Of a stretch of DNA of 64,000 nt, positions 139 to 24,916 are shown one piece after another. The translations under genes and the position numbers were made by a program. A model generated the notes under the pieces. That model ran no database searches and was not told the origin of the DNA. It saw only the letters and a program-made list of their open reading frames with translations. Numbering within the stretch: the stretch's first letter is position 1; every line of letters starts with the position of its first letter. The stretch is from Bacteroidales bacterium (GTDB lineage: Bacteria; Bacteroidota; Bacteroidia; Bacteroidales; WCHB1-69): assembly GCA_045616665.1 (NCBI GenBank), contig JAZLHE010000036.1, forward strand, positions 1,011 to 65,010. Direction: 5' to 3'.

Positions 139-1230
139 ATGAAAAACTTGAACAAAGCTGTTGTCATTTTGCTGAACATCCTATTCTGCGGCATAACACT
201 TTATTTTTTCACCCACAATGCCTTTCTCCGTCCTTATGCGGGCAGCTTTTTCAAGGAATTCGTCTCCTGCCTTCTATTACTGGGGTCATTATACGTCAAT
301 TACTTTATACTCTATCCCAAGATTCACCAAAAACGTTCTCACACCATCTATTGGTTGACGTTGGTTTGCCTTGACGCCGCATTGGGGCTTGCGGATTTTG
401 CCATTGCCTACCCATATATTGTTTCTCATAATACACAGGTCATCAAACTTGTCGGCTTCTATAGTTTCTTCTCAAAGACACTGTTTCTAATTGTTGGACG
501 TAATCTCTCATTGAATTTTATTCCCTATCTGTTGAGGGAACGGCAATATTTCCGACAGTCTTTAGAAAAAGAAGTAAGGGTCGTTTACCTGAATGTGCGG
601 AAGCTTGATGTAATGGATAAAGACAGCAACATCCACCTGGTTGACATTGACGACATACTTTATTGTCACCAAATTGGAAACTACACGGAAATCTGTATGA
701 TACAAAATAAGAAGTACTTACGCCTCGGTTCAATGAAGCATCTTGAACAGTTATTTGGCGAGGATGATTTTATCCGCATAACAACCACCATATTAGTGCC
801 ATTCCGATTCATTGCATCCTATCAAGATAATATGGTAACCCTAAAAAAAATGTCTTGGGAGGAAGAACCTGCTGCATTTATGTTGGAATCCAAGAGCCAG
901 AAAAACGTTGTTCAAAGAATTTCGGACCATTTTCAAGAATGCGGCAAGACGGCAAATGACAAAAATATTCCACAGGAAACGAACGCACCAAAAGTCAAAC
1001 GCAAACCGGCAATCCCTCCGGAAGAAAAAATAAAAAAAGTTCTTTTCTACATAAAAACGCACCACAACTGCAATTCGGCGGATATTATTGCCGAAACGAA
1101 TTATTCGTTGAGTACTGTTGAACGCTGCCTATCTGAACTCAAAAATCAGGGATTGATTGAACACACGGGAAGTAAAAAGAAAGGCGGTTACGCTATGATT
1201 AATACGCAGCAGAAAAAAAGGGCTTTGTAA
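139..1230 (+). CDS. Membrane-anchored LytTR-domain DNA-binding protein with C-terminal winged-helix-like module
   Basis: The N-terminus has several hydrophobic helices (VVILLNILFCGITLYFF, LLLLGSLYVNYFILY, YWLTLVCLDAALGLADFAIAY). The central LytTR-like block is IHLVDIDDILYCHQIGNYTEICMIQNKKYLRLGSMKHLEQLF..FIRITTTILVPFRFI. A Lys-rich linker is followed by an HTH-like segment, YSLSTVERCLSELKNQGLIEHTG. Confidence 0.6.
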   Translation: MKNLNKAVVILLNILFCGITLYFFTHNAFLRPYAGSFFKEFVSCLLLLGSLYVNYFILYPKIHQKRSHTIYWLTLVCLDAALGLADFAIAYPYIVSHNTQVIKLVGFYSFFSKTLFLIVGRNLSLNFIPYLLRERQYFRQSLEKEVRVVYLNVRKLDVMDKDSNIHLVDIDDILYCHQIGNYTEICMIQNKKYLRLGSMKHLEQLFGEDDFIRITTTILVPFRFIASYQDNMVTLKKMSWEEEPAAFMLESKSQKNVVQRISDHFQECGKTANDKNIPQETNAPKVKRKPAIPPEEKIKKVLFYIKTHHNCNSADIIAETNYSLSTVERCLSELKNQGLIEHTGSKKKGGYAMINTQQKKRAL

Positions 1231-1313: not shown

Positions 1314-2432
1314 TCAAAACACCAACTTGTTGTGTTCTAGTATCTTGCGTGCGCTGGAGCGGTGTGTGTAGCGTTCCGTCATGGATATGGAGTGGTGGTC
1401 GGCCAATTCCTTGACGTACTTAATGGGGACACCCGACTCAAGCATTTCCGTGATGCCGGTGTCTTTCAGAGAGTAAAATTGGTACTCTTTCGGCAATTGC
1501 AGCTTTTGCCTCATTTTCTGCCAGGTGCGCTGTATCTTTTGTGGACGCACGTAGGTTTCTCCCGGCTTGAAATCGTCGGAAAATATGTATTGGTCTTGTT
1601 CCAAGGTGTTTAGGGTGTTAAAGTACCGAAATATCTCTGACGGCAACGCAATGATTCGTTCGTTATGTGTTTTTGCGACGGAGGAAGGAATTCTAAGCAG
1701 TCCCTCGGTGAAGTTTATGTCACCAACCCTCAGCATCGATATTTCCTTGGGCCGTATAAAGCACCTGTAGCAAAGCTTCATGATAATGATGTATTCCGAC
1801 ATTTTTAATTTTTGGAAGTATTTTTTTATCTTGGCACGGTCGGTACGGGGAATAATGGTTCTTGTTTTGGGACCCGTTTTCCTTGAGGAAAAGCCCTGAA
1901 ACGGGTTTGTCTTGACATAGCCGTTTTTTATTAGGTAGTTGAACAGGTTTTTGAAAAACGTCAAGTCATAGTTCCAGGTACGGGGACAAACATTTTCCCG
2001 CTCGATGTCGGACATTAGCATAGATGCGTGCTTTACTGTAAATCTATCGCACATCCACGAAGCCATTTTTTTCTGGGTACACCAACGAATAAAGTATTTG
2101 CATAGTGACTTGTATCTTTTAACCGATGATGGTCTGAGTTCTCGGTTTTTCTTTTTCAGGAATTCTGTTGCGGCAGAGGACAGGGAAATCTCGTTGTTCA
2201 TATTTGGCACATCGTCAAAATAGGGATTCCAGCCATTGTACAACTTGGCATTCAGTTCAAGGCAATAGAGTCGCGCATATTTTATTCGCTCTCTTTTTCC
2301 CTTAATATGATTGAAGCGGACGCGCTTCCGCTGAAGAGTGTTGGAGGATGGATTTAGGATGTAGTAACTGACATAGACCTCCTTCTTGTTGACGACTTGT
2401 GCCGGACGAAATTCAATGAAAGGTTTTGACAT
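1314..2432 (-). CDS. Tyrosine recombinase / site-specific integrase (Bacteroides-type)
   Basis: The C-terminal catalytic region contains IRPKEISMLRVGDI, AKTHNERIIALP, YSLKDTGITEML and ELADHHSISMTERYTH (His...Tyr nucleophile context). The N-terminal region (VYVSYYILNP...RKRVRFNHIK) is typical of the arm-binding domain of Bacteroidota integrases. Confidence 0.9.
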   Translation of the reverse strand: MSKPFIEFRPAQVVNKKEVYVSYYILNPSSNTLQRKRVRFNHIKGKRERIKYARLYCLELNAKLYNGWNPYFDDVPNMNNEISLSSAATEFLKKKNRELRPSSVKRYKSLCKYFIRWCTQKKMASWMCDRFTVKHASMLMSDIERENVCPRTWNYDLTFFKNLFNYLIKNGYVKTNPFQGFSSRKTGPKTRTIIPRTDRAKIKKYFQKLKMSEYIIIMKLCYRCFIRPKEISMLRVGDINFTEGLLRIPSSVAKTHNERIIALPSEIFRYFNTLNTLEQDQYIFSDDFKPGETYVRPQKIQRTWQKMRQKLQLPKEYQFYSLKDTGITEMLESGVPIKYVKELADHHSISMTERYTHRSSARKILEHNKLVF

Positions 2433-2607
2433 ATAAAATATTGTTTTTCAATTGTTTGACAAAGCGACAATGTTTGATTTTTTGCGTTTTGGGCGCAAAT
2501 TTGGCGCAGTGGAATATTTGCATAAATATACAAAAATAGGGAATATTGGGAAACCCTGGAATATAATTTGGCGCAAAAATGGATTTTTCAGATTCAAAAA
2601 AAAATAT

Positions 2608-2615
2608 TATCTTTG
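2608..2615 (+). promoter_or_regulatory. Putative -7 box (TATCTTTG) for cassette 1
   Basis: Matches TAnnTTTG, about 20 nt upstream of ATG 2637. The surrounding string AATATTATCTTTGC is repeated upstream of cassette 3 (5778-5791 region). Confidence 0.5.
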
Positions 2616-2636
2616 CAGTGTCAAAATTAAAGCATT

Positions 2637-3494
2637 ATGAATCAGCACCTTTGCCAAGGCACTTTTCTTCCAAAAAATCCTTTGCGGGTGAATTTCACCT
2701 TCTCGGCAAAAGAGCGTGATGTTGAAACAGGCTTAAGTTACTTTGGTTCACGCTATTACAGCTCCGATTTAAGCATTTGGCTGAGCGTTGACCCGCAAAG
2801 CGACAAATATCCCTCGTTCTCACCGTATACGTATTGTGCGAATAATCCTATCAAGTTGGTGGATCCGAATGGGGAAGAGATAGATATTGACGGATACAGG
2901 TATATCCCTGGTCAATCATGCCCTGAAGGAGTTGCGGATAATACACGAAACAAATGGAATGCAATGAATGATATTTATAAAAGAGAGAACGGAAAATGTG
3001 TAATTGATGAAATGGACCAATCTAAATCTTGTTTCACTATTTCATCTGAAATTAAAACTGATGGAAGAGGATGTTATTCTTCAAATAATGACGGCTCTGG
3101 CGGTACCATATACTTAAACGGTCATGATAATGATATAGGTACGCTATCACATGAATTATTTCACGGATATCAAGATTTAAATGGAATAGAGCAACATTCA
3201 ATATTTAATGAAGTTGAAGCGAATCTATTTAGTTTTTCGATTACTGGGGATACAAGAGGGCTATTTGACAAAATTGATAATGATGAATATTCCCGAAACT
3301 ATAACACAGCTATGGCAACCTTATTATATGGTAATGGGTTAGATGCTTATAGTTTTAATCACGTTCTCTCCAATTTCAAAGACTGCTCTCCTAAAAATTG
3401 GAAAGGAACGTATGATAATTATTCTATAAATTCTTTTTCAATATCTTTGATATCAGATTTTTATCCTCTTTATCCTGTTAGATTGCAAAAATGA
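2637..3494 (+). CDS. Cassette 1: orphan Rhs/YD core C-terminal fragment fused to an HExxH (zincin-like) toxin domain
   Basis: Core motif FTFSAKERDVETGLSYFGSRYYSSDLSIWLSVDP...YTYCANNPIKLVDPNGEE (DNA about 2694-2885), followed by unique sequence containing HELFH (3150-3164). No YD-repeat shell lies upstream. Confidence 0.75.
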   Translation: MNQHLCQGTFLPKNPLRVNFTFSAKERDVETGLSYFGSRYYSSDLSIWLSVDPQSDKYPSFSPYTYCANNPIKLVDPNGEEIDIDGYRYIPGQSCPEGVADNTRNKWNAMNDIYKRENGKCVIDEMDQSKSCFTISSEIKTDGRGCYSSNNDGSGGTIYLNGHDNDIGTLSHELFHGYQDLNGIEQHSIFNEVEANLFSFSITGDTRGLFDKIDNDEYSRNYNTAMATLLYGNGLDAYSFNHVLSNFKDCSPKNWKGTYDNYSINSFSISLISDFYPLYPVRLQK

Positions 3495-4054
3495 AGAAAT
3501 TACATTTCTATTTTTTTATTTTGCTTATTGTTTTTTGTGGCTCAAGCAAATGTTTGCTAGGTCAAATCTGTGATACTATAGAATTTGACTATATAATGCC
3601 ATTGGACAACGATTTCCAACTTCAAACAGGATGCATTCAGTTAAATCAAAAGGTTGATTCGTATCCTATCATTAGTTCAGACAGTTGTGGAGATACAATT
3701 CCGTCGATGATGTATTTACATGTGTTTTTGAATAGAAAAAATCAGAGAACCAGATATTTGATGATAAAAAAAACAGAAATTTTCTTTATGGCATTAACTG
3801 ATTCCATTCACGGAAAAGTAAATAAATTTTGTTTTTTTTATCAGGGGAAACCACCTGCAGAGATAATGGAGGAAGCAGGGAACTTTTGCAATCTGCTAGA
3901 TTTTCACATTATGGGAATTATAAACTCTTGGACTTGGGAACTCTTAGATGAAGACATTGATTCTATGCCTTTGGAAATAGACTTGCTTGTGCCATTACAT
4001 TGTAACTTAGTATTGAAGACGAATCTTATTGACAAGTTTAATTCGTTAAATTGA
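3491..4054 (+). CDS. Cassette 1 putative immunity protein (exported / lipoprotein-like)
   Basis: The start overlaps the toxin stop (ATGA). The N-terminus is MKKLHFYFFILLIVFCGSSKC (signal peptide, lipobox-like). I recognised no family. Confidence 0.5.
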   Translation: MKKLHFYFFILLIVFCGSSKCLLGQICDTIEFDYIMPLDNDFQLQTGCIQLNQKVDSYPIISSDSCGDTIPSMMYLHVFLNRKNQRTRYLMIKKTEIFFMALTDSIHGKVNKFCFFYQGKPPAEIMEEAGNFCNLLDFHIMGIINSWTWELLDEDIDSMPLEIDLLVPLHCNLVLKTNLIDKFNSLN

Positions 4055-4269
4055 ATGAAAAGAAGTTTTTCCACTCGATTATTTACAATAAACCAAACTT
4101 GACTTTCAATGATAATTTAACAGTGAGGTTGTAAACATTCCATTTTTCTGGTAGGTTATTAAATTTGACTCGCATAATTCACCAGAATTCGTAAATTTGT
4201 TTTTCTATTTAACCCATTCCTAAATACTCGCACAAAATCACCGACATCACTTTTTATTCCTTGCCACAT

Positions 4270-4366
4270 TAAACCAATCTCCCCAACCACAGTCATTATA
4301 AAAAATAGCGTTTAAATTTTCGGTGGTTGGTGCAGTTTTAAAAACTTTTCCGTAAATTTGCATCCT
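4270..4366 (+). repeat. Direct repeat copy A (partner at 8890-8983), contains a -7 box
   Basis: A 40-nt identical core, CCACAGTCATTATAAAAAATAGCGTTTAAATTTTCGGTGG, occurs at 4287-4326 and 8902-8941. A 15-nt identical block, AAAACTTTTCCGTAA, occurs at 4341-4355 and 8956-8970, followed in each copy by (A/G)TTTGCA. Confidence 0.85.
4353..4360 (+). promoter_or_regulatory. Putative -7 box (TAAATTTG) for cassette 2
   Basis: Matches TAnnTTTG, about 28 nt upstream of ATG 4389, and lies inside repeat copy A. Confidence 0.5.
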
Positions 4367-4388
4367 CAATCAAACACCGAACACAAAA

Positions 4389-5303
4389 ATGCCAACACAA
4401 AATCACACATATCACCCCACCGTCTCAGCAGCGTCCTCCGCCGCCACCTATTCCCTATTCCCTGTTCCCTATTCCCTAAATTTCACCTTCTCAGCGAAAG
4501 AATGCGACACAGAAACAGGCTTAAGTTACTTTGGCTCACGCTATTACAGCTCAGATTTGAGCATCTGGCTAAGTGTTGATCCGCAGGCAGCGAAATACCC
4601 TGGTTTATCGCCATTTACGTATTGCGCCAATAACCCGGTGAAACTGGTGGACCCGAATGGGGAAGAGATAGATTGGGTCGAAAAAGCTGATGGAACAATT
4701 TATTGGGATGACAATGCCACTTCCCAAGAAACCACAAAAGACGGGGAAAAATATTTAGGAAAAAATGTTTTAGTAGCAACTCATAACCGAGATGCCGATT
4801 TAAATGAGCCTATAAATAGTGCCACATATGATTTATATCTGGAGAGTAATAAAGAAGGATCTACAGCGAGCATTGTGGGTAATACCGTTCCTTCAAATGG
4901 AACGATATCGGGTACTTTAGCGGAAGGATTGTATCCTGCTCGTTTTCAAGGGAGGGCAAAATATATACAAAATGGTAAAACTGATTTGGCCTTAATCATC
5001 AATGAGGGGCGCAGTGTTCCGACAGCCAATGGAAGCCCAAAATCTTCGATGACTGGAATATTTTTTCATGCAGGTAATAATTATCAGACATCTCTATTTG
5101 ATTCAAAAGGGCACGCCTATTCAGAAGGTTGTTTGACAGGACCTTGCAGACTCAATTCTTCTGCAGAATGGAATGCTTTTGGGAAGCAATTAATAGGATT
5201 TAACGGATCTGTGTACCTGAGAGGTCAGCCACAACCTGCTCCGCTTGAATTCCCTCCAATTGATAGTTCTCTCTCAGGAAGAAGTATTTTAAACGTACGG
5301 TGA
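4389..5303 (+). CDS. Cassette 2: orphan Rhs core fragment fused to a YkuD (L,D-transpeptidase)-like toxin domain
   Basis: Core FTFSAKECDTETGLSYFGSRYYSSDLSIWLSVDP...FTYCANNPVKLVDPNGEE (DNA about 4482-4672). The C-terminal domain contains FFHAGNNYQTSLFDSKGHAYSEGCLTG, which fits H-x17-S-x-G-C-hydrophobic. Confidence 0.7.
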   Translation: MPTQNHTYHPTVSAASSAATYSLFPVPYSLNFTFSAKECDTETGLSYFGSRYYSSDLSIWLSVDPQAAKYPGLSPFTYCANNPVKLVDPNGEEIDWVEKADGTIYWDDNATSQETTKDGEKYLGKNVLVATHNRDADLNEPINSATYDLYLESNKEGSTASIVGNTVPSNGTISGTLAEGLYPARFQGRAKYIQNGKTDLALIINEGRSVPTANGSPKSSMTGIFFHAGNNYQTSLFDSKGHAYSEGCLTGPCRLNSSAEWNAFGKQLIGFNGSVYLRGQPQPAPLEFPPIDSSLSGRSILNVR

Positions 5304-5305
5304 TT

Positions 5306-5779
5306 ATGGATAAATATATTGCGACATTTGTTGTCTTTATTTTATTTGTATCGTGCCGTTTCCCTGTGACAAATGCACTTCAAAACAATCAGTGCAAAAG
5401 CAATAATTTCGCAGAAAGAAGCATTCCTGACAGCCTTGATTCATACAAACTCATACAAAACAAGTGGTACTACGTTGTTGGACCAAATTGTGTCAGCTAT
5501 CTTACTTTTCAACAGGATTTTAGGTACGAAGAGGAAAATTGTGAATGGGAACTATTTTATAATGGAAATTACAAAATATCAAAGGACAGCATCATTTTGT
5601 ATGAATATGATTTGGTCTCCAATTCTCCCAATGAAGATAGGATTGTTAATACATATATTTACACGTATGTTTATCAAGGGAATCGCTTAAAATTAGTAAA
5701 TACTAGAACTGTTAAAGATGGGATTGAAGTAAACACCTATTTCCCAGACAGCGTTTTTTATTATAGATTTGAAGAATAA
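5306..5779 (+). CDS. Cassette 2 putative immunity lipoprotein
   Basis: The ATG is 3 nt after the toxin stop. The N-terminus is MDKYIATFVVFILFVSCRFP (lipoprotein-type signal). Confidence 0.5.
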   Translation: MDKYIATFVVFILFVSCRFPVTNALQNNQCKSNNFAERSIPDSLDSYKLIQNKWYYVVGPNCVSYLTFQQDFRYEEENCEWELFYNGNYKISKDSIILYEYDLVSNSPNEDRIVNTYIYTYVYQGNRLKLVNTRTVKDGIEVNTYFPDSVFYYRFEE

Positions 5780-5783
5780 ATAT

Positions 5784-5791
5784 TATCTTTG
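5784..5791 (+). promoter_or_regulatory. Putative -7 box (TATCTTTG) for cassette 3
   Basis: Matches TAnnTTTG, about 40 nt upstream of ATG 5832. The ORF-track start at 5769 lies upstream of the box, so 5832 is preferred. That start gives MPIQNHTY, homologous to MPTQNHTY at the start of cassette 2. Confidence 0.5.
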
Positions 5792-5831
5792 CCCCATCAA
5801 TCACCAATCACCAATCCCCGAACACCCAAAA

Positions 5832-6782
5832 ATGCCAATACAAAACCACACATATCGTCTCACAGCCCCGGCACCACCCCTCACAGCCCTCTATCCCCTA
5901 CACCCTAAACCCTGTACCCTAAAAAGTTCCACCTTCTCCGCCAAAGAAAAGGACATTGAAACAGGCTTATTAGTTACTTCGCTACGCGAAGTTTCCTCCT
6001 TGCGGCTCGGCAATTGGCGAACAAGTTCGCATTGCACTCGCTCGCTGCGTCGGTTTGGCTCACGCTATTACAGCTCCGATTTGAGCATCTGGCTGAGCGT
6101 GGATCCGATGAGTGACAAATATCCTCACCAATCAAATTATGTTTATTGTAGTAATAATCCGATAAGAATAACCGATCCTAATGGAGAGGACGAGTATGAA
6201 TTTGATGGGTCGGGAAACATGACAAGAGTTAAGGAATCTAATAATGATATTTTTTATAAAATTGATGAGAATGGTACACGAACAGGTGAGTCTCTTTCTT
6301 TTAAGGGAAAAATTGTATCGGATCAGAAGACCATTGAAGGCGAGAAAAGAAATTCATTTTATTTAAGGATTGATAATGCGAATGATGCAGAAGCTGTTTT
6401 CTCATTTATCTCTGACAAAGTAGAACAAGATGGAGGAGAATATTCAAATTCTATAGTACAAGATAAAGGAGGTGCCATATATAATTTGATAGGTTCAGAT
6501 ATTGATGCGGTGAAAGGTGAAAGTTATTCGATTACAAATTTGCTATATTCTAATGAATATTCAGTTATGGAATCTATTCATAATCATTATGCTGGAAAGG
6601 TGTCTCCCAGTGAATCAGATGTGAAATTGGCCCGTCAATTTCCAAATACAAATTTTATGGTTAGAACACTTGGTAATTATTGTACTCCATATGATGGAAA
6701 CACTCCTGCTGATTATGACATGGGAACAAGTAGCGTTAGTGTTCCTTTGAAACCCTTTGAAATTATTAAAAGTCGTCCATAA
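5832..6782 (+). CDS. Cassette 3: orphan Rhs core fragment (interrupted by a 78-nt in-frame insertion) fused to a JAB/JAMM-motif toxin domain
   Basis: Core STFSAKEKDIETGL[28-aa replacement]FGSRYYSSDLSIWLSVDP...YVYCSNNPIRITDPNGEDE (DNA about 5927-6192). The C-terminal domain contains HNHYAGKVSPSESD, which is H-x-H-x7-S-x2-D (6579-6620). Confidence 0.7.
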   Translation: MPIQNHTYRLTAPAPPLTALYPLHPKPCTLKSSTFSAKEKDIETGLLVTSLREVSSLRLGNWRTSSHCTRSLRRFGSRYYSSDLSIWLSVDPMSDKYPHQSNYVYCSNNPIRITDPNGEDEYEFDGSGNMTRVKESNNDIFYKIDENGTRTGESLSFKGKIVSDQKTIEGEKRNSFYLRIDNANDAEAVFSFISDKVEQDGGEYSNSIVQDKGGAIYNLIGSDIDAVKGESYSITNLLYSNEYSVMESIHNHYAGKVSPSESDVKLARQFPNTNFMVRTLGNYCTPYDGNTPADYDMGTSSVSVPLKPFEIIKSRP

Positions 6783-6792
6783 ATTTAAAATC

Positions 6793-7347
6793 ATGAAGAA
6801 GCAAATTTTACTGCTAATTTTCATATTGTTAATGACAGCAAATTATGTGTTTAGTCAATATCGTTATAAAATTACAGTGCCAGTTGTATATGTAGATACA
6901 CCTTCTTTATTTAGTTCATTAATAGATACAATTGAAATATTGAATGCCGAATGTATGCGAGGTTGTAACACTAATTATATTGAAGTTGAGTGTCGCTCAA
7001 ATAAAATGATTTGGGATTCTTCATATAGTTTTAGAATTATAGACGGTTCATGTGCTTTGACTGATACTTCTATAAAGGGTGTTTCATATTATAAAGGGAA
7101 AATTATCGTATGGTACAACAGTATACCATTAGCTTTATTTTGTAAAAAAACGGATAAATGGGTAGTAATTGATTTACCAAATATAGATACACATGAACCA
7201 ATTAGGGATAATATTCCGGAGATATTTTGTTGTTATTATGGAGGACAGCTGTTTATTTATCGGATAGATTTTTGTATGAATTTCAATATAACACGTAAAT
7301 ATCCTATAATAATTCAAAATTATAGAAATATTTATAACATTGAATAA
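6793..7347 (+). CDS. Cassette 3 putative immunity protein (secreted)
   Basis: The ATG is 11 nt after the toxin stop. The N-terminus is MKKQILLLIFILLMTANYVFSQ (signal peptide). Confidence 0.5.
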   Translation: MKKQILLLIFILLMTANYVFSQYRYKITVPVVYVDTPSLFSSLIDTIEILNAECMRGCNTNYIEVECRSNKMIWDSSYSFRIIDGSCALTDTSIKGVSYYKGKIIVWYNSIPLALFCKKTDKWVVIDLPNIDTHEPIRDNIPEIFCCYYGGQLFIYRIDFCMNFNITRKYPIIIQNYRNIYNIE

Positions 7348-7366
7348 GATAACATTGAATTAAGTA

Positions 7367-8257
7367 ATGTACTCTCAAACACTTGCACAATCCATCTTAG
7401 GTGAGGACTTCGTTGACCAGCGCACTACCAATTGGGCCGCCCGTCACACCTTCTCCGCCAAAGAAAAGGACACGGAAACTGGCTATAGTTACTTTGGCTC
7501 AAGATATTACAGCTCCGATTTGAGCATTTGGCTAAGTGTAGATCCAATGGCAGCGAAATACCCGAGTTTGAGTCCGTATGTTTACTGTGCGGATAACCCT
7601 GTGAAGTTGGTGGATCCAAATGGGGAAGAGATAGATTGGGTTGAACGAAAAGTGAATGGCATAAAAGAAGTGTTTTACGACAGAACCGTTAAATCCCAAG
7701 CTGACGTAGATAAAAAATATGGAAATAATTATAGAGTAAGACATCTTGCCGATGGATCAAAGGTTGGCAATGGGCAGTACACTGTTTACAACGACCACGT
7801 TAACAATAAAAACGGCGTAGTGAAAGATGCAAACGGTAATGTTCTTAATCCTGACAGAACTATAATATATGGGAATGATTACACACTTTTTGCTGGTGTG
7901 ACCGATGAAAGTGTAGATGCGAAATCTTTACACAATAATATGTTTGGTTCTAGTTATATTGGCGCAGACAATCCCAAAGACTATAAAGGGAAAGACAATT
8001 ATGATTATCAACCCATATGGAGTCCAACAGAAATGGCAGCTTATCTTCATGACAAGGCGTATGATGCAGTTGGAGCCGAAGGTGTGTCAGGAGCACTGTT
8101 GGACCAACGCACAAAATGCGCAGACCAATGTTTAATTTATGAGTGTAAAAAAATTGCAAAAAACCCTAAAATAAACACATCAGAAAGAAGTAGAGCGAGA
8201 AAAATCGCTTTTGGTTTTTCCTGTATAGATTTTATATTTAAAACACCACGTTTTTAA
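7367..8257 (+). CDS. Cassette 4: orphan Rhs core fragment fused to a toxin domain with possible PLA2-like motifs
   Basis: Core HTFSAKEKDTETGYSYFGSRYYSSDLSIWLSVDP...YVYCADNPVKLVDPNGEE (DNA about 7445-7636). The C-terminal domain contains YIGAD (7955-7969) and HDKAY (8048-8062). I saw no separate -7 box, so it is probably co-transcribed with cassette 3. Confidence 0.65.
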   Translation: MYSQTLAQSILGEDFVDQRTTNWAARHTFSAKEKDTETGYSYFGSRYYSSDLSIWLSVDPMAAKYPSLSPYVYCADNPVKLVDPNGEEIDWVERKVNGIKEVFYDRTVKSQADVDKKYGNNYRVRHLADGSKVGNGQYTVYNDHVNNKNGVVKDANGNVLNPDRTIIYGNDYTLFAGVTDESVDAKSLHNNMFGSSYIGADNPKDYKGKDNYDYQPIWSPTEMAAYLHDKAYDAVGAEGVSGALLDQRTKCADQCLIYECKKIAKNPKINTSERSRARKIAFGFSCIDFIFKTPRF

Positions 8258-8265
8258 AAAGCAGT

Positions 8266-8826
8266 ATGAAAACAATGGGATACTTGAATAAATCGATTAA
8301 GTTTGTTTTTTATATTGTTATTGTCGGAACATTGCTATATGTAGTGTGGGCCTGTTTTTTTGTCGCCACTTTTCATGGAGACACATACGGTAAATCGGAA
8401 GCATACGTAATTGATATTAATACAAATACGAGTGATAGACCCCTTAATTCTGCTGACATCCTTGATTTATTATATGGTTTTCAGTCTTCGCATCCTCAAT
8501 TTAAATTAATGGACACAGATACACAAGGGAATATATATCATAACTTTTCAGATAAAATAGATAACCGAAACGATCAATATTTGGTTTTCTTCTATATGAA
8601 GGATATTAATTTAACATTCTCTTGTGTAACTGAAGTTACTTCTAAAAATCATCCTTTAATAAAATTGTATGCCATTAATGAAGGGTCTGTGTTTCGTCAT
8701 TGGGAGAGAATTAACAACTACAAGGAAATATCCCGTAAAAAAAACAAAATAATTAAGAAGAAGTTTGAAACTGAAATTCTTAATAACTTAGGAGTGAAAT
8801 GGAGACATAAACGGTTTTGGGATTAA
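8266..8826 (+). CDS. Cassette 4 putative immunity protein (N-terminal membrane anchor)
   Basis: The ATG is 9 nt after the toxin stop. The N-terminal hydrophobic helix is FVFYIVIVGTLLYVVWACFFVATF. Confidence 0.5.
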   Translation: MKTMGYLNKSIKFVFYIVIVGTLLYVVWACFFVATFHGDTYGKSEAYVIDINTNTSDRPLNSADILDLLYGFQSSHPQFKLMDTDTQGNIYHNFSDKIDNRNDQYLVFFYMKDINLTFSCVTEVTSKNHPLIKLYAINEGSVFRHWERINNYKEISRKKNKIIKKKFETEILNNLGVKWRHKRFWD

Positions 8827-8889
8827 TATAGCAGGGAGTTTTCAAAAATCTGTGTCACATGTTAAAATATCACCCTCCAAATTTAAACC

Positions 8890-8983
8890 AACCGCCCCAA
8901 ACCACAGTCATTATAAAAAATAGCGTTTAAATTTTCGGTGGATGGCTTGGATTTCAAAACTTTTCCGTAAGTTTGCACATCCA
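8890..8983 (+). repeat. Direct repeat copy B (partner at 4270-4366), carries the murF/alr promoter
   Basis: See copy A. The -7 box TAAGTTTG is at 8968-8975. Confidence 0.85.
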
Positions 8984-16974: not shown

Positions 16975-16982
16975 TATCTTTG
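16975..16982 (+). promoter_or_regulatory. Putative -7 box (TATCTTTG) for the alpha-2-macroglobulin gene
   Basis: The ORF-track TTG start at 16980 lies inside the box, so ATG 17007 is preferred. Confidence 0.5.
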
Positions 16983-17006
16983 TCAGTCCATATAGAAAAA
17001 CATTGT

Positions 17007-20000
17007 ATGAAAAAAGTTTGTGCGTTAATTTTTTTGTCCATATTGTTGACTGTTTCATCATTTTCTCAGCAAAGTCCAAAAGAAATCCATCAACTATTGC
17101 AATCCTACGGAAAAATCATACAGCAATACGACAATGGATACGATTCGGTTTTTCTTGCTATCAATGAGCAAATTAAAAACTCACAAAATCAACCGGCCAA
17201 TCAAGCGGTTTGGCACAGTTGTATGGCTCAATTATTAAATTCCTATTATGAGCAAAATCGATATAAGATATTGGACCGCACCTCAATTGTGGGAGAAATC
17301 AATCCCGATTTCAACACCTGGGACTTGCAGACACTCGTTCAACAAATCGTATTTCACTATTTATCGTCCATTGAACAAGCGGAAATTTTACAAAACATTC
17401 CCATCACGGAATATTCCGCACTATTAGACACTCCTATTTCTACTGAATATCGTCCGACTTTATACGATTTTTTGGCATTTCGTGCCTTAGACTATCTTAA
17501 TAACACGATTTCTCAGTTACCCATTCCAACGAAACCATTCGATATCAACAATCCGGTTTATTGGGCAAGCAACAATGATTTTGTCCAAGCAAGCATTACC
17601 TCATCAGATTCATTGTCGTTTTCTTACCTTTCTTTAACTGTTATGCAGCAGCTTACTCGTTTTCACCTCCTCGACAAGGATAAACGAGCTTTATTAGACA
17701 TCACTTTACGGCGATACAATTACCTTAATTCTCTTGCGAATTTACCCGGGTCTTCCATTTTGACTTTGACTACCCTGAACCAATTAGAGCAAACTTATCG
17801 TGGTATGACAGGATACGAAATGATTACCAATGCTTTAGGTAATTACTACCAAAAACGTGGAGAACAATACGACAAGAACACACATCCGGAATACAAAGGC
17901 GACTGGGTTACCGCTGTTGATTGGTATCAAAAAACCATTGCCACTGCAGCAAAATCCATTGAAGCCAACCAGGCCCGTTTAGCCATAGAAAATATCAAAA
18001 AATCACACATAGAAATTGTAGCCAGTAGAATTCTTCCTGCACTGCAAGCCAACTTAATTACCCTGAACCATCAAAATTGTGAGCAGCTGTACCTTCGAAT
18101 CATACCCGTCACCAAAGAAGAAAATTCCCAATATTACCCTTCCAATGAAAAATATTTCGATTTGCTGGTGAAAAAGAAACCGGTTTTAGAAGAAACATTC
18201 ACTTTCCCCGACATCAATGACTATCGGACCCAAAGTGCGCACTATCAATTGCCTGCATTAAAGCCCGGCTATTATTTCATTTTAGTTTCCAACACTCCTT
18301 TTGTGGCTAAAAATGCCAAGGACTTTTGCATTTTCCAAATTTTTATCAGCAATATTAATGCCGAATATCGAATAGTGAGAGACCAACAAAAAATTGAATT
18401 TTTTGTCTTTGACCGGAAAACTGGAGCACCCCTGAGCAACGCAAAAATAAATATTGAAATCAACAACTCAACAAGAAATATCAAAACGACCACACTTAGC
18501 TGTGACCAGGATGGCAGATGCACTTTTCTTGCTTCGTCAAACATAAATAACCGCTACAAAGCTTCAGTTTTATGGGAAAATGAAGACTACCCCATATTTT
18601 CTTACAAATCTCTATATGCCCGCAACAACACACAAGAGCAGGCTCGCAACCACACCTATATTTTCACGGACAGAAACCTGTACAGACCAGGTCAAACCAT
18701 TTATTTTAAAGGTATTGTCATCAATAAAAAAACGAAAGACGGAAATACCATTGAGCAGCAAGTCGTTAAAGATCAAAATATCACCATTAATCTATGGGAT
18801 GAAAACAACCAAATGGTGGCCGAAATAAAAGACTTAAAAACCAATGAATTCGGTTCATTTTCTGGTCATTTCGTTTTACCTAACACCACTTTAACCGGAG
18901 AATACCACTTATCGGTAGGAAAAGACAGAGAATATTTCGCAGTGGAAGAATACAAAAGGCCTACTTTTGAAATCACATTTGACAAAGCCGCAAATGAATT
19001 CAAACTGGGTGACAGTGTTAACATCGAAGGCAAGGTGAAAGCATACGCCGGTTATGGACTTGACCAAGCCTCTGTCAAATACCATATAATTAAACACACT
19101 TCGTTTCCTTGGAGATATTTTTGGTATATGCCCACCCCTCAGCACCAGGAAATTGCACAAGGAGAAACATTCACCGATGCGGAAGGCCAATTCAAAATCA
19201 ACTTTTTTGCCGCACCAGACTTAGAAAATCAACATTTTAATCCGCTGTATCAATTTATAATTATGGTTGATGTCACCGACATTACAGGAGAAACACACTT
19301 CGCATCAACCGCGATTAACATCAGCAAAATCGGTTTATTCATCCAAGCTCAAATTCCAGAGCAACTTGACAAATATGACACTTCGGACTTTGCGGTCAAC
19401 TTAACCAACTTGGCTGGAGAACCCCAAAAAGGAACTATCCATTATCAAATATCAAAATTAAGAACTCCTGAGTGTTACCGTTACACTTGCCCGACGGCTG
19501 ACCACTATTTGTCGGATTCGGTCGCTTTACAAAAAGCATTGCCCTATCTTGATTTTAACAACGAAAGTGAAAAACAAAATTGGAAAGTCATAAAAATCGT
19601 TCAAGAAGGCGATTTTATGGCTGATGGCACGCATCGTTTTTCCATTGACCAGCTTTCCCGCTATGAAGACGGCTATTATAAAATTCACTTCAGCACGTAT
19701 GATAAAGACCATAATGAAATCACGGAAGACAAATATGTATTCATTGATGCCGAAAACAGCAAAAAATGCATGGCATACGAACCTGTATATTTGCGAAGCA
19801 AACACAAAAACATAGCGGAAATAGGAGAAACTATATCTGTGGTTTTGGGAACTTATTTGAAAAATGCCAAAGTGCTGTTTGAAATTTTCTCTAATGACAG
19901 TTTAATTGAATCCAAGTGGATAAATTTAGATCGGGAAAATGCCTATTTCAACTATAAAGTGACAGAACACGACCTCGGCACAATTATTTTTCATGCTTTT

Positions 20001-22965: not shown

Positions 22966-23051
22966 CACACAATACGTTAGTTGTATGTTTCAATACTTTT
23001 GTTCGAGTATTTGAACTGATATTATTGGTAAGGCAGGAGGATTATCATAAA

Positions 23052-24188
23052 ATGGATAAATATAAATTTACAAATGTACAAGATGAAAAAATGTCTATAA
23101 TTACTCATTATAGGCATACTAAAGGTACATCATTCGCAAAAATCTTTGCAGCAGAAGCTTGCGCATTGCTGCCTAAAAAAGAAAAAAACCACATTGATAA
23201 AGTTTGTGAACCTGAATTTCAATATGGTTTATTTGATGATGAAAATATTCCATTTCCCTCTCCCAAAAATCCAAAATTTACATTTATCGATTTATTTGCA
23301 GGAATAGGAGGATTCCGTATTGCATGCCAAGCAATAGGAGGACAATGTGTTTACTCTTCCGAATGGGATACTGAAGCTAAAAAAACTTACTTTGCCAATT
23401 TCGGTGATGTACCTTTCGGAGACATTACAAAACCAAGAACCAAACAATTCATTCCTTCTGGATTTGATATACTTTGTGCAGGTTTTCCTTGTCAAGCTTT
23501 TTCTATTATGGGTAAAATGAAGGGTTTTGCGGATATTCGTGGAACTATGTTTTTTGAAGTTCAAAATATTTTGCAACAACATAATCCGCCTGTAATATTT
23601 TTAGAAAATGTGAAACAATTGGTTAGTCATGATAGTGGTCGAACATTTAAAACAATCCTCAATATATTAGAGAATCTTGGCTACCATGTAAAATGGAAAA
23701 TTTTGAATGCGTTAGATTTTGGTGTTCCACAAAAGCGGGAGCGTGTTATTATCGTTGGTTTTAAAGACATTAGTAAATCTGAAGCGTTTAATTTTGAATT
23801 TCCCCCAAAAATCTACAATCTTAATAGTGTATTGGAGCCAGATTCCATGGTTGATGCTTCACTTTTTGCATCTGAAACAATAAGAATGAAACGAGAAGAA
23901 AAAACAATAGGTAAGCATATATTTTATCCATCAATGTGGCATGAAAATAAGTCTGGTAATATTTCAATTCTCGATTATGCTTGTGCCCTTAGAACAGGAG
24001 CGTCGTACAATTATCAGTTAGTGAATGGGTATCGCAGACCTTCATCACGAGAACTATTGCGATTTCAAGGTTTTCCTGACACATATAAGATTGTTGTATC
24101 TCATCAAGAAATTAGAAAACAAACAGGCAACTCTGTAGCTATCCCCATGATACATTCAGTTGCAAAAAAAATATATGAAGTATTATGA
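23052..24188 (+). CDS. DNA (cytosine-5)-methyltransferase (type II)
   Basis: Motif I FIDLFAGIGGF, motif IV GFPCQAFS, motif VI FLENVKQL, motif VIII QKRERVIIVGF, motif X GNSVAIPM. The start is uncertain (TTG 23025 or ATG 23052). Confidence 0.9.
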   Translation: MDKYKFTNVQDEKMSIITHYRHTKGTSFAKIFAAEACALLPKKEKNHIDKVCEPEFQYGLFDDENIPFPSPKNPKFTFIDLFAGIGGFRIACQAIGGQCVYSSEWDTEAKKTYFANFGDVPFGDITKPRTKQFIPSGFDILCAGFPCQAFSIMGKMKGFADIRGTMFFEVQNILQQHNPPVIFLENVKQLVSHDSGRTFKTILNILENLGYHVKWKILNALDFGVPQKRERVIIVGFKDISKSEAFNFEFPPKIYNLNSVLEPDSMVDASLFASETIRMKREEKTIGKHIFYPSMWHENKSGNISILDYACALRTGASYNYQLVNGYRRPSSRELLRFQGFPDTYKIVVSHQEIRKQTGNSVAIPMIHSVAKKIYEVL

Positions 24189-24916
24189 TACACCCAAAAT
24201 TACGAGATTCTCAAAAAAATGTTGACTCCATTTATGAAGTTAACATTTTCCCCAAAAACATTATTCAAAGGATAGGCGCGCATATTGTTTACTTAATGTA
24301 TTCAGGTCGACGCGATATTACCGGGGATGATTGGGGGGATATTTTTGCCGAAACAATTAAAGGCACTCATTTTGCGAGTCCAATTGGTATTGCCGATGTG
24401 GCATTTGAAAAAACTGGATGGTCAATGAAAACAGTCAAACATACTCATCCATTCAATTGTACCAATGTTCGTTTAATTAGTGGAAGATGTTCCCCAGATT
24501 ATTCATTTGGAATTACAGACCCGCATACTGACATTCAAAAAACAGGACAAGCCGTTTTAGCAGTACGGAATGAGCGTATTAATATAGCTTACGAAGAATA
24601 TAATTCCGTTAGAGTGAATGTACTTGTCAGAAATGATGACTTAACCGAATTTCGAATGTTTGAAGAATATATTGAACGATACAAAACCAACGATTATATA
24701 TGGAAAGAAAATAAAAATGGTAATTTATTAGGGATAAATAAGCATTCTGGACAGACCTGCTTCACCTGGCAACCCCATGGAGCGCAATTCACCATCCACA
24801 CTAATGTGCCTGAAGATGCTATTAAATTTAAGGTTAAGCGACCTCCCATAGTGTCGATGGACTCTGTTTTGCAAAGCATTAATTTTGATAATTCTTGGAT
24901 ACAAATTATTGAATAA
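24185..24916 (+). CDS. Putative type II restriction endonuclease partner
   Basis: 4-nt ATGA overlap with the methyltransferase gene, same strand, AT-rich. I recognised no family, so the call rests on context. Confidence 0.45.
   Translation: MIHPKLRDSQKNVDSIYEVNIFPKNIIQRIGAHIVYLMYSGRRDITGDDWGDIFAETIKGTHFASPIGIADVAFEKTGWSMKTVKHTHPFNCTNVRLISGRCSPDYSFGITDPHTDIQKTGQAVLAVRNERINIAYEEYNSVRVNVLVRNDDLTEFRMFEEYIERYKTNDYIWKENKNGNLLGINKHSGQTCFTWQPHGAQFTIHTNVPEDAIKFKVKRPPIVSMDSVLQSINFDNSWIQIIE

Follow-up and report, generated by a model that had tools for sequence, protein, structure and literature searches.

Polyimmunity loci adjoining XerC/D recombinases are known, and the rAID-1 cluster, as published, is an immunity-only gene array that lies downstream of its recombinase and is co-directional with it; the rAID-1 papers make no mention of toxin fragments. 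An earlier note on a 64,000-nt stretch of Bacteroidales DNA (the window) had placed a tyrosine recombinase with four toxin-tip and exported-protein modules among such clusters. All these genes were found as described, but a different reading is favoured here: with a probability of about 0.68, the window covers part (the recombinase and one arm) of a shufflon that exchanges the C-terminal toxin/immunity module of a giant polymorphic toxin of the Rhs type. Related bacteria of the gut and rumen share the arrangement, which there appears to swap modules onto the end of a giant toxin-delivery protein, via inversion at a fixed short site. No published description of inversion-based module swapping for this kind of toxin was found. 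The features of the locus are as follows.

139-1230, plus strand: LytTR and winged-helix regulator, membrane-anchored (Pfam LytTR 35.6 bits, HTH_24)
1314-2432, minus strand: REC, tyrosine recombinase, candidate invertase
2433-2636, no strand: divergent control region with TGGCGCA repeats and T1 promoter box, up to the T1 start
2637-3494, plus strand: T1, tip in the REC-proximal expression slot (22-codon MNQ leader, core, CT1)
2680-2712, plus strand: candidate T1 recombination site (arms and 9-nt spacer; crossover mapped in relatives)
3491-4054, plus strand: I1, exported small protein with hydrophobic N-terminus, presumed immunity to CT1
4267-4362, plus strand: repeat D5 copy A, which duplicates the promoter region of murF-alr together with the 5' end of minus-strand gene X
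4389-5303, plus strand: T2 (leader, half-site, core, CT2)
5300-5779, plus strand: I2, predicted lipoprotein (..LFVSC) with hydrophobic N-terminus, presumed immunity to CT2; overlaps T2
5832-6782, plus strand: T3 (box, repeats, half-site, interrupted core, CT3)
6793-7347, plus strand: I3, signal-peptide protein, presumed immunity to CT3; 10-nt gap after T3
7367-8257, plus strand: T4 (shell-proximal remnant, half-site, core, CT4)
8266-8826, plus strand: I4, N-terminally membrane-anchored, presumed immunity to CT4; 8-nt gap after T4
8883-8977, plus strand: repeat D5 copy B at the array end (gene X remnant, murF-alr promoter)

The four plus-strand tips are divergent from REC, and each ends in a different C-terminal toxin followed by a small exported protein. 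All exceeded the cut-off of TIGR03696 (Rhs_assc_core, 32.5 bits) with 63.0, 59.8, 43.6 and 58.6 bits, and since the profile was entered only at positions 13-30 of 76, the tips are 5'-truncated; FSAKE lies 22-33 codons from the tip ATG. A degenerate core pattern gave four matches in 64 kb, exactly the four tips (expected 0). The claimed conservation of the core DNA was confirmed in four copies (75-87 % identity), except that 84 inserted nt (5970-6053) split the T3 core, a sign of possible partial decay of this copy. Sequences 3' of the core are unrelated, as had been proposed: no significant pairwise similarity was detected among the four C-terminal domains (196-211 aa past DPNGE(E/D)) or among I1-I4. 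The N-termini of I1-I4, but not of the tips, are strongly hydrophobic (Kyte-Doolittle maximum 2.2-2.6 over 15 aa), in agreement with the predicted export signals apart from I4, which looks membrane-anchored and not signal-peptide cleaved.

The start of I1 overlaps the T1 stop by 4 nt (ATGA), and CT1 contains HELFH with a weak M91-like metallopeptidase match. The T2 leader comprises 4.6 copies of CCTATTC (4447-4478) and is followed by the half-site CACCTTCTCAGCGAAAG at 4484-4500. CT2 is predicted to adopt a YkuD/L,D-transpeptidase-like fold (model pLDDT 93.7; the best 10 PDB matches are all L,D-transpeptidases, best E 3e-4), with H133, S151, G153 and C154 (H...SxGC) invariant, and elsewhere this domain forms the end of proteins of 2021-2203 aa. 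T3 starts at the ATG at 5832 (the listed ORF begins at TTG 5769) and has a promoter box (5784-5791), four copies of CCCTAAA (5896-5923) and a half-site (5930-5946). CT3 is a JAB-like toxin 1 (Toxin-JAB1, 31.7 bits) with HNHx7SxxD intact. T4 retains about 20 codons of shell-proximal sequence (GEDFVDQRTTNW) and a half-site at 7447-7463, and has 55 tip-length homologues; CT4 has an invariant His-Asp and a confident model (pLDDT 91.7), which matched no known fold in the PDB (best E 0.35). Among the four toxin domains, an assignment was reached for CT3 and CT2 only.

The control region contains TGGCGCA at 2491-2497, 2502-2508 and 2569-2575, the T1 promoter box TATCTTTG at 2608-2615 and the T1 start ATGAATCAG at 2637. 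These elements were invariant or near-invariant in an alignment of 12 loci with recombinases just 44-52 % identical; the first repeat pair is present also 5' of REC-family members in other contexts. Three of the four tips have the TAnnTTTG box attributed to them, 21-40 nt 5' of the ATG (T1, 2608; T2, 4353; T3, 5784), and none was found before T4. The motif is frequent (113 found, 76 expected), and the T1 box was the only one at an invariant position across the 12 related loci. The T2 box, TAAATTTG (4353-4360), is provided by D5 copy A; copy B combines a 33-codon remnant of gene X on the minus strand (8984-8886) with the promoter of murF-alr, TAAGTTTG (8968-8975).

A short site marks the 5' core edge of every tip and of the giant gene in the relatives described below; it has the conserved right arm TCTCCGC(A/C)AAAG, a spacer ending in CACCT and a left side that is not conserved. 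In the window CACCTTCTCNGCNAAAG occurs four times, once per tip (expected 0). A matching left arm, which creates a palindrome with a 9-bp spacer, is present only at the REC-proximal T1: arms paired at 8 or more of 11 positions with a spacer of 9 or 11 in 17 of 23 distinct T1 sites, against just 3 of the 57 remaining tips; 2 of the 46 giants pair as well, at other spacings. The T1 palindrome of the window is degraded, the left arm CTTTGCGGGTG having 8 of 11 positions in common with the family consensus CTTTGCGGAGA, while the right arm TCTCGGCAAAAG reads TCTCGGC; its crossover window is CACCTTCTCGGC. Some REC-linked giants (L094, L111) have a divergent site, TT(T/C)AGTGCC. Alternatively, the T1 palindrome could fold as a hairpin in RNA or bind a regulator.

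The 372-aa REC matched Pfam Phage_integrase at 73.8 bits and was Xer-like in a PDB profile search. Residues R227, K254, H346 and Y355 are invariant, and K323 takes the place of the second catalytic Arg, which is present in Xer proteins. The tip-linked recombinases constitute their own clades inside a larger integrase family, and REC is the probable catalyst of inversion.

Among 31 related Bacteroidales loci with a recombinase of the REC clades, a divergent tip was found beside the recombinase in 29 of 30, which substantiates the proposed linkage, a T9SS-tail gene in 24 of 25 and the N-terminus of the giant in 20 of 21, the sole exception (L001) having a truncated Rhs. The recombinase lies between an inverted tip array and the T9SS-tail gene with the giant, and the order in complete loci such as L105 and L116 is outward-facing tips, REC, optional LytTR, a lipoprotein of ~170 aa, a T9SS-tail protein of ~500 aa and the giant. 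The latter is a SpvB/TcdB-mid/FG-GAP/DUF6443/RHS protein of ~3,100 aa whose core, toxin and immunity genes point outward on the other strand, and further direct tips often lie beyond its module. The LytTR regulator of the window is convergent with REC; its homologues (23-27 % aa identity, E 1e-18 to 1e-34) were found at the equivalent place, with the recombinase on one side and the T9SS-tail and giant operon on the other, in 11 of 31 recombinase loci, and LytTR loci continue into the T9SS-tail gene and the giant in 20 of 21. The earlier note was correct that no Rhs shell, PAAR or T6SS gene is encoded within the window (the 1978-aa ORF at 16980-22916 is an alpha-2-macroglobulin), but in relatives a shell gene does lie across the recombinase, inverted with respect to the tips. 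Because the left end of the window is cut about 100 nt short of the expected start of the giant operon, we only infer that its own genome has the giant gene just past this edge.

An exchange could be reconstructed from L089 and L105, two contigs of two different assemblies. L105:9700-18699, carrying the giant, is 99.79 % identical to L089:1-9000 in the same orientation, and L105:3470-6986, which covers T1 and T2 with the immunity gene of each and some of the chromosomal flank, is 99.97 % identical to L089:12398-8881 in reverse complement. The comparison shows an inversion between them of the stretch that runs from recombinase to shell; L089 starts 300 nt 5' of the giant, with the recombinase side beyond the contig edge. 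In a three-way alignment L089 equals the L105 giant through TCACACCTTCTCCGC and L105 T1 from the next base, and beyond TCACACCTTCTCCGC numerous mismatches separate the two cores of L105, which places the crossover in this interval of ~15 nt at the 5' edge of the core. The same break site was found in five near-isogenic pairs (L133/L149, L107/L108, L002/L004, L005/L100 and L007/L009; 92-99.4 % identical elsewhere), whose leaders are identical through CACCTTCTCCGCnAAAGA(A) and divergent directly after it. Some exchanges, such as that of CT_x in L133/L149, map to the 3' part of the core, an indication that homologous recombination acts too. DNA clusters of CT and immunity gene (at least 80 % identity) link giant, direct-tip and inverted-tip positions. 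The tips are recombination-competent, as had been proposed: one and the same module can be met in a tip beside the recombinase, in a direct orphan or in fusion with a full-length protein. Turnover is also seen close to the window's own genome, where relatives 93.5 % identical across murF-alr (L167 and L168) have LytTR directly next to murF-alr and neither REC nor array, and others have a different neighbour at this place. The module on the L089 giant, which is that of the L105 T1 slot, is related to the third of the window (CT3 58 %, I3 35-40 % identity).

In the proposed shufflon, which accords with the remark in the earlier note that this may be a toxin-exchange locus, recombination between the site of the giant and any oppositely oriented tip site would invert all the sequence between them. 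The shell would then read into another core, toxin and immunity module, and the displaced module would land behind a tip leader. All T1 tips share the same start codon and leader length. The T1 slot would provide a fixed promoter, ATG and 22-codon leader and would probably ensure expression of, at a minimum, the immunity gene in the neighbouring module. Cytoplasmic tips that lack a shell are expected to do no harm, given that each of the four immunity proteins of the window is exported. In addition, a role of the array in immunity is very probable.

The best surviving alternative, unlikely in our opinion and compatible with a shufflon, is a rAID- or integron-like defence store, in which the recombinase captures foreign cassettes singly, the orphan immunity genes are expressed and the toxin parts are baggage. 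It has precedents in rAID-1 and the XerC/D-linked polyimmunity loci, and it would account for the low GC of the immunity genes (0.27-0.32 vs 0.40 in the surroundings; tips in hosts of 0.55-0.61 GC still have 0.31-0.45) and for the different cassette content of close, even near-identical, relatives, the comparison proposed earlier. However, the sole reconstructable event is an inversion with the giant gene and not an insertion, the recombinase and inverted tips always accompany the giant operon, and the junctions between cassettes consist of heptamer repeats and a half-site.

It is still less probable that this is an ordinary Rhs orphan array, rearranged by RecA-dependent homologous recombination between cores beside an unrelated recombinase. 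Classical direct orphan arrays of this Rhs family do exist without a recombinase (L082, L087-L093 and others), about half of the giant loci having direct orphan tips yet no REC, and toxin turnover in general therefore does not depend on REC; T4 retains shell-derived sequence as displaced tips do, and one exchange falls inside the core. In contrast, when the 33 giant loci with 5 kb or more of sequence upstream were compared, 10 of the 11 that have REC and none of the 22 that lack it had inverted tips (Fisher p = 1.2e-7). Moreover, six break points fall within the same window of at most 19 nt at the extreme margin of the homology, despite longer identical stretches deeper in the cores, the palindrome is T1-specific with a fixed spacer, and the recombinase clade is context-specific.

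Insertion of REC and the cassettes as a mobile island between LytTR and murF-alr, with REC as integrase and D5 as att sites, is very improbable. L167 and L168 (93.5 % identical across murF-alr) do have LytTR directly beside murF-alr, at 87 nt, with no REC or array, other branches of the integrase family, like element integrases, are found in diverse surroundings with a conserved protein of ~780 aa behind them, and the direct repeat of 82-95 nt is real. Nevertheless, the D5 copies flank cassettes 2-4 and not the recombinase, and D5 was not found at other arrays. The L167 LytTR is just 23 % identical to that of the window, and the difference between these relatives extends beyond an island to the entire Rhs locus. 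The position of REC relative to the giant operon is unchanged in genomes with recombinase identities of just 43-52 %. Finally, an assembly chimera across the repeated core is barely credible as the source of the L089/L105 inversion: both are metagenome contigs and assemblers struggle with this region, since many contigs of the family stop inside cores, but the junction shares just ~15 nt, too short for k-mer joining (usual k at least 21), before the L105 cores differ every few bases, the inverted block extends into the L105 chromosomal flank, and the same break base recurs in five other pairs from other assemblies.

Compared with the described systems, the fixed promoter slot beside REC recalls attI/Pc of integrons, but the integron-integrase model scored REC at 56 bits against a cut-off of 265 and no attC-like hairpins were found at the window, so integron-like capture was not upheld. 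Membership of the rAID group was likewise not supported, because the rAID-1 array is co-directional with its recombinase and immunity-only, whereas the present array diverges from its recombinase and has a complete toxin domain ahead of each immunity gene.

Four pairs of open reading frames (ORFs) lie on the plus strand within 1314-8983, divergent from a tyrosine recombinase gene, REC. The main elements of this part of the window are:

139-1230, plus strand: regulator gene LytTR
1314-2432, minus strand: tyrosine recombinase REC, 372 aa, Phage_integrase match of 73.8 bits
2696, 4484, 5930 and 7447, all four on one strand: copies of the recombination site
4267-4362 and 8883-8977: direct repeat D5, 82-95 nt, 88-89% identity

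The first ORFs of the pairs, T1 to T4 counted from REC, matched TIGR03696 (Rhs-associated core) at 63.0, 59.8, 43.6 and 58.6 bits (cut-off 32.5), and because these matches enter the profile only at positions 13-30 of 76, T1-T4 are 5'-truncated Rhs tips. Their core DNA occurs in four copies of 75-87% identity, with no further copy in the 64 kb. The C-terminal domains that follow DPNGE(E/D), CT1-CT4, are mutually unrelated, and the same is true of the four small proteins encoded downstream by I1-I4, the presumed immunity ORFs. A tip with a toxin domain of 196-211 aa stands before every small ORF, and the N-terminus of each of the four small proteins is strongly hydrophobic. The earlier note, made from the sequence alone, had described a recombinase with four such pairs, and the Phage_integrase and TIGR03696 matches, the repeated cores and the unrelated C-termini confirm this composition; the TAnnTTTG box is present on three of the four tips, as it had stated. 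The conserved core that it assigned to T3 is present, but interrupted by an in-frame insertion of 84 nt (5970-6053, +28 aa) between ..ETGL and FGSRYY. A T3-type insertion (~72% identical) is also carried by an inverted tip of locus L081, where it contains a stop, and by a direct tip of L123. The possibility that the insert encodes a structured RNA was rejected, as no significant fold was obtained (z = -0.09). The remaining genes of the window, which comes from the metagenome-assembled genome of an uncultured Bacteroidales bacterium, are of the housekeeping type (murF-alr fusion, rpoD, htrA, alpha-2-macroglobulin and others).

CT3 was identified as JAB-like toxin 1, with the HxHx7SxxD motif intact by inspection. 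The structure model of CT2 reached a pLDDT of 93.7 and its ten best PDB fold matches were all L,D-transpeptidases; H...SxGC is invariant across the CT2 family, and elsewhere the domain forms the C-terminal end of proteins of 2,021-2,203 aa. CT1 contains HELFH, and its M91 match was sub-threshold. For CT4, which has 55 homologues of tip length and was modelled with confidence (pLDDT 91.7), the PDB gave neither a sequence match nor a fold match; a search with the whole T4 tip for full-length carriers gave only proteins of 160-501 aa among the best 120 matches. Exported immunity proteins fit envelope-acting toxins.

The REC family comprises more than 500 proteins, all from uncultured Bacteroidales; the best 120 homologues of REC (44-96% identity) come from metagenome-assembled genomes of such bacteria, and none is named Bacteroides or Parabacteroides. 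The nucleophile Tyr355 is conserved together with R227, K254 and H346. The entire family has SLKDTG (K323) in place of the HxLRH of XerC/XerD, so that the second catalytic Arg is replaced by Lys and the His before it is missing. With the REC-family profile 80 genomic loci were gathered and then scanned with an HMM of the four window cores. Truncated cores, one to four each, were found in 16 loci, always upstream of the recombinase and divergent from it. The tip-linked recombinases form clades of their own in the tree, and other branches occur in unrelated, element-integrase-like contexts.

On the downstream side of the tip-linked recombinases, and co-oriented with them, were found a gene for a ~170-aa lipoprotein, a gene for a ~500-aa protein with a T9SS sorting tail and a giant ORF with SpvB, TcdB-mid, FG-GAP, DUF6443 and RHS-repeat domains. 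Since this giant gene (~3,100 aa) is co-oriented with REC and the tips are divergent, the tips are inverted relative to the full-length Rhs gene. A convergent LytTR regulator, like that at 139-1230 of the window, lies downstream of the recombinase in one third of the loci. The window was correctly noted to contain no Rhs shell; in relatives the giant lies across REC from the tips. The window starts ~100 nt upstream of LytTR, exactly at the expected start of the giant operon, and the giant was therefore not visible to the earlier reader. Exact searches with REC, LytTR, T1 and T4 gave no match, and contigs with an identical RpoD, 1.7-4.1 kb long, end short of the array. It is presumably present in the window's own genome, where its core would start ..CACCTTCTCCGC on the minus strand to the left of the window.

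A metagenome scan with the N-terminus of the giant provided 80 more loci, several of them complete. In L116 four inverted tips are followed by REC, then by the T9SS-tail gene and by a giant of 3,140 aa together with its core, toxin and immunity genes; direct tips come last. A divergent tip accompanied the recombinase in 29/30 loci, the T9SS-tail gene in 24/25 and the giant in 20/21. Upstream sequence of 5 kb or more was available for 33 giant loci, and among these inverted tips were present in 10 of the 11 with REC and in none of the 22 without it (p = 1.2e-7). REC is not a chance neighbour of the tips.

Several relatives depart from this architecture. The search with the Rhs region of the giant returned only proteins of up to 1,559 aa and led to the REC-less comparators L081 (9800-10100) and L082 (9200-10000), in which an inverted tip is immediately joined to a 5'-truncated Rhs shell. 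On the tip side the break falls at the usual site, on the shell side at differing positions; the tip of L082 and T2 of REC-bearing L116 are one and the same cassette (97.5% identity). These arrangements look like dead-end products of recombination with secondary sites. In L149/L154 (10001-12360) the giant is internally deleted, with 257 N-terminal and ~260 pre-core residues left in a total of 786 aa, and the recombinase has remained intact, as have three inverted and two direct tips. In L101, a giant locus without inverted tips, the last ~75 recombinase codons alone remain upstream of LytTR (5952-6179), which suggests that the REC arm has been lost.

The DNA downstream of every core was clustered to track the toxin/immunity modules. 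The same modules were found in three positions: fused to the giant, as direct orphans and as inverted tips on the recombinase side. The most direct evidence for their movement comes from L089 and L105, two loci from different assemblies whose giants are 99.79% identical over 9,000 nt and stand in the same orientation. The L105 segment 3470-6986, comprising T1, T2, their immunity genes and the chromosomal flank, equals L089 8881-12398 at 99.97% identity in reverse complement, and in L089 this block stands directly behind the shell of the giant. These near-identical strains therefore differ in the orientation of the segment that extends from REC to the shell. At base level L089 equals the L105 giant up to TCACACCTTCTCCGC and continues with L105 T1 from the next base; past TCACACCTTCTCCGC the two cores of L105 differ by a mismatch every few bases. 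The alternative orientations are thus known from these relatives of the window, with the crossover confined to TCACACCTTCTCCGC. The BLAST alignments of the two loci overlap by ~120 nt, which could be taken for a long identical repeat, and base-level alignment reduced the shared stretch to ~15 nt. An assembly chimera is very unlikely, since a shared stretch of 15 nt is too short to be bridged in assembly. The inversion, together with the sharing of modules among tip, orphan and giant positions, supports the proposal of the earlier note that this may be a toxin-exchange locus.

The crossover sequence belongs to a site common to all tips and most giants, ..(T/C)ACACCT|TCTCCGC(A/C)AAAG, upstream of which the copies are unrelated. 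A left arm, CTTTGCGGAGA, complementary to the right arm, is found only at the recombinase-proximal tip: pairing at 8 or more of 11 positions with a spacer of 9 or 11 was observed in 17/23 distinct T1 sites, compared with 3/57 other tips and 2/46 giants, the latter at other spacings. The left arm of the window T1 matches the consensus at 8/11 positions. The oppositely oriented copy of the site is seen in the giant gene of relatives and lies outside the window. REC would be the catalyst of the inversion. Between REC and T1 lie direct repeats of TGGCGCA (window 2491-2508 and 2569-2575), kept in 12/12 aligned loci; the first pair also occurs upstream of REC-family members in non-Rhs contexts (L011, L019). 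These repeats are likely a binding site of the recombinase or of a regulator.

Five further pairs of loci (L133/L149, L107/L108, L002/L004, L005/L100 and L007/L009) are 92-99.4% identical on the recombinase side, and their T1 leaders agree up to CACCTTCTCCGCnAAAGA(A) and diverge immediately after it. Breaks at the 3' end of the core, indicated by megablast ends in L107/L108, L007/L009 and L002/L004, were not upheld, as alignments place the divergence at the 5' site. Beyond the tip the chromosomal flanks of L002 and L004 are entirely different, and the L004 flank is shared with L009 at 97.7%, a pattern that would be the expected product of a flipped central segment.

Ordinary homologous displacement also acts on these loci. 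The exchange of one toxin domain (CT_x) in L133/L149 maps to the 3' part of the core instead, and tips such as T4 of the window have kept shell-derived sequence. In L106 versus L112 and L004 versus L009 flanks of 97.7-99% identity adjoin Rhs-locus DNA of much lower identity, under the 95% search threshold in the first pair and ~83% on the recombinase side in the second; the Rhs locus is a hot spot of replacement between strains.

The slot occupied by T1 was aligned in 12 loci whose recombinases are only 44-52% identical. The promoter box TATCTTTG is present in the window and most of these loci, with the TA and TTTG positions invariant, and the start is ATGAATCAG except in L008, where it is ATGGTTCAA. 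The leader length of 22 codons and the TGGCGCA repeats between REC and T1 are likewise invariant or nearly so. Given this conservation, any module that comes to lie next to REC is supplied with a promoter and a start codon. The presumed purpose is to keep the adjacent immunity gene on: the slot would maintain its expression, also in a module that has newly left the giant, and the shell-less tips made in the cytoplasm would be harmless if their target is in the envelope. T1-type leaders (MNQ start and left arm) also occur on tips without an adjoining recombinase (L106 21695, L098 10840, L021 7873), direct tips downstream of giants among them.

The leaders of internal tips are built of 4-6 tandem 7-nt units, in the window at 4447-4478, 5896-5923 and 5798-5816 and in many other loci (e.g. 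L110 9600-9668), so that the cassette junctions of the window consist of heptamer direct repeats and a half-site. The unit sequence varies between cassettes and the repeats always stop a few bases before the recombination site. Gain or loss of units would put the tip out of frame, since 7 is not divisible by 3. The leader of T2 is 87% identical to internal leaders of L003.

The surroundings of the array differ among close relatives. In L167 and L168, 93.5% identical to the window across murF-alr, LytTR adjoins murF-alr with neither REC nor an array, and in other such relatives (L169, L170, L173) an intact gene X stands next to murF-alr; the comparison of relatives for cassette gain or loss that the earlier note had proposed thus gave non-identical contents. 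The LytTR of L167 is only 23% identical to that of the window, and the gene that follows it is homologous to the ~170-aa gene preceding the giant operon. These differences at murF-alr indicate that the whole antagonism locus turns over between close relatives. The D5 copies combine the promoter region of murF-alr with the first 33-40 codons of minus-strand gene X, and the inner copy supplies the promoter box ahead of T2. D5 was rejected as the att sites of an element, since the copies do not flank the recombinase. Further away, at 23025-24916, stands a gene for a C-5 cytosine DNA methylase (Pfam DNA_methylase, E 4e-88) together with the next ORF, which overlaps it by 4 nt and encodes 243 aa without a Pfam match; the two may constitute a type II restriction-modification pair. 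In relative L171 the methylase likewise adjoins the alpha-2-macroglobulin gene.

Site-specific inversion is the best-supported mechanism of the locus. With a probability of roughly 0.6, the dedicated tyrosine recombinase runs a programmed, reversible shufflon with which one cell lineage changes the toxin on its giant Rhs/Tc-like weapon, and the T1 slot keeps the neighbouring immunity gene on and thereby prevents killing between switched and unswitched siblings. If true, it would be the first known case in which site-specific recombination diversifies a polymorphic toxin. The diversification of polymorphic toxins (Rhs, CDI, MafB and others) is thought to proceed via horizontal transfer and homologous recombination with silent orphan cassettes, a slow and accidental route. 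If a recombinase encoded at the locus exchanges toxin/immunity modules at a defined site of 15 nt, the identity of the toxin would become phase-variable, with consequences for kin discrimination, the coexistence of strains and invasion in gut and rumen communities. The system is also compact, with one recombinase, a short site and a readable output.

Among known systems, the classical Rhs orphan arrays (Salmonella, E. coli, Serratia; Jackson 2009, Koskiniemi 2014) are in direct orientation downstream, with variable core lengths, and homologous recombination leads there to duplication or deletion. In the loci studied here, by contrast, the recombinase-side tips of relatives are inverted rather than downstream of and co-oriented with a full-length rhs gene, they are linked to a recombinase, and all start at the same nucleotide-level site. 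A direct orphan array of the same Rhs family does occur in L082. The Ornithobacterium paper deals with ordinary displaced tips, and a passage in PMC7043789 mentions promoters belonging to some classical orphans themselves.

The earlier note had compared the array with rAID clusters, a filing that is not supported. The two share the order Bacteroidales, a XerD-like tyrosine recombinase beside a low-GC array that includes immunity genes, repetitive intergenic sequences and a content that differs among strains. Three features define rAID-1 loci: identity of the recombinase to BF9343_RS08045 of 44% or more, two or more genes downstream of it and co-directional with it, and a GC of up to 41% (Ross et al. 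2019). The last of these features was found here, alongside two departures, a divergent array and a toxin domain in every cassette: the GC contents are 0.36 (T1), 0.32 (I1), 0.43 (T2), 0.32 (I2), 0.39 (T3), 0.27 (I3), 0.40 (T4) and 0.31 (I4), with T2 alone above the limit. The rAID-1 array is downstream of its recombinase and co-directional with it, whereas here it is upstream and divergent, as in all 29 related loci; the gene downstream of REC is the convergent LytTR. The rAID-1 loci have no toxin domains and no link to a toxin-delivery gene, and defence is the only role proposed for them; their arrays are described as made up of orphan immunity genes, without mention of toxin or Rhs fragments (Ross et al. 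2019), whereas a toxin domain precedes each small ORF of the window. Loci L042-L080 (~30% recombinase identity), considered as rAID-1 candidates, proved to contain element integrases followed by ~600-aa and ~1,400-aa genes. The present system may be a mechanistic ancestor or cousin of the rAID arrays of gut Bacteroidales, and it offers a concrete mechanism for the building of recombinase-linked immunity arrays in Bacteroidales, a question left open by the rAID authors (Ross et al. 2019). Polyimmunity loci often adjoin XerC/D recombinases, and SpvB/beta-propeller/RHS proteins form the TcdB/TcaC-type class of polymorphic toxins (Zhang et al. 2012).

The integron-like filing of the array is not supported either: a tyrosine recombinase divergent from the cassettes and a fixed recombinase-proximal promoter are shared, but IntI-specific features are absent (TIGR02249 56.4 bits, cut-off 265; NF011946 15.7, cut-off 435), no attC-like conserved inverted repeats were found at the cassette 3' ends in the window, the site lies inside coding sequence and gives in-frame fusions, and the documented event is an inversion.

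A close likeness is to the R64/IncI shufflon (Rci, sfx, pilV C-termini), in which a tyrosine recombinase gene also stands beside alternative 3' gene segments, and inversions at several opposed sites fuse a constant 5' gene body to varied C-terminal segments. In the sfx sites the right arm and the spacer are conserved and the left arm is not, the same asymmetry as that of the site in tips and giants. The systems differ in their target, which is a pilus adhesin in R64 and here an Rhs polymorphic toxin of ~3,100 aa, and in that each segment here carries its own immunity gene. Moreover, the invertible segment here exceeds 10 kb and holds the recombinase and nearly the entire target gene, and at one site, that of T1, a full palindrome is coupled to a promoter and a start codon of its own. 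In the same bacterial order, the tyrosine recombinase Tsr0667 of B. fragilis mediates multiple inversions that exchange parts of SusC/SusD surface-protein genes (PMC4747536). This shufflon-type system acts globally on distant loci, whereas REC is bound to its locus, and serves another target family, with variation of nutrient or phage receptors rather than of an antagonism toxin with immunity. In a systematic survey of gene-altering inversions, of which shufflons are the reference case, SusC/SusD are listed among the known targets and the words toxin and Rhs are absent (PMC9881135); literature searches gave no description of an Rhs or polymorphic-toxin shufflon. The few gene families for which programmed inversion is known would be joined by an antagonism weapon: the shufflon-like working is known, and the polymorphic-toxin target with linked immunity is new.
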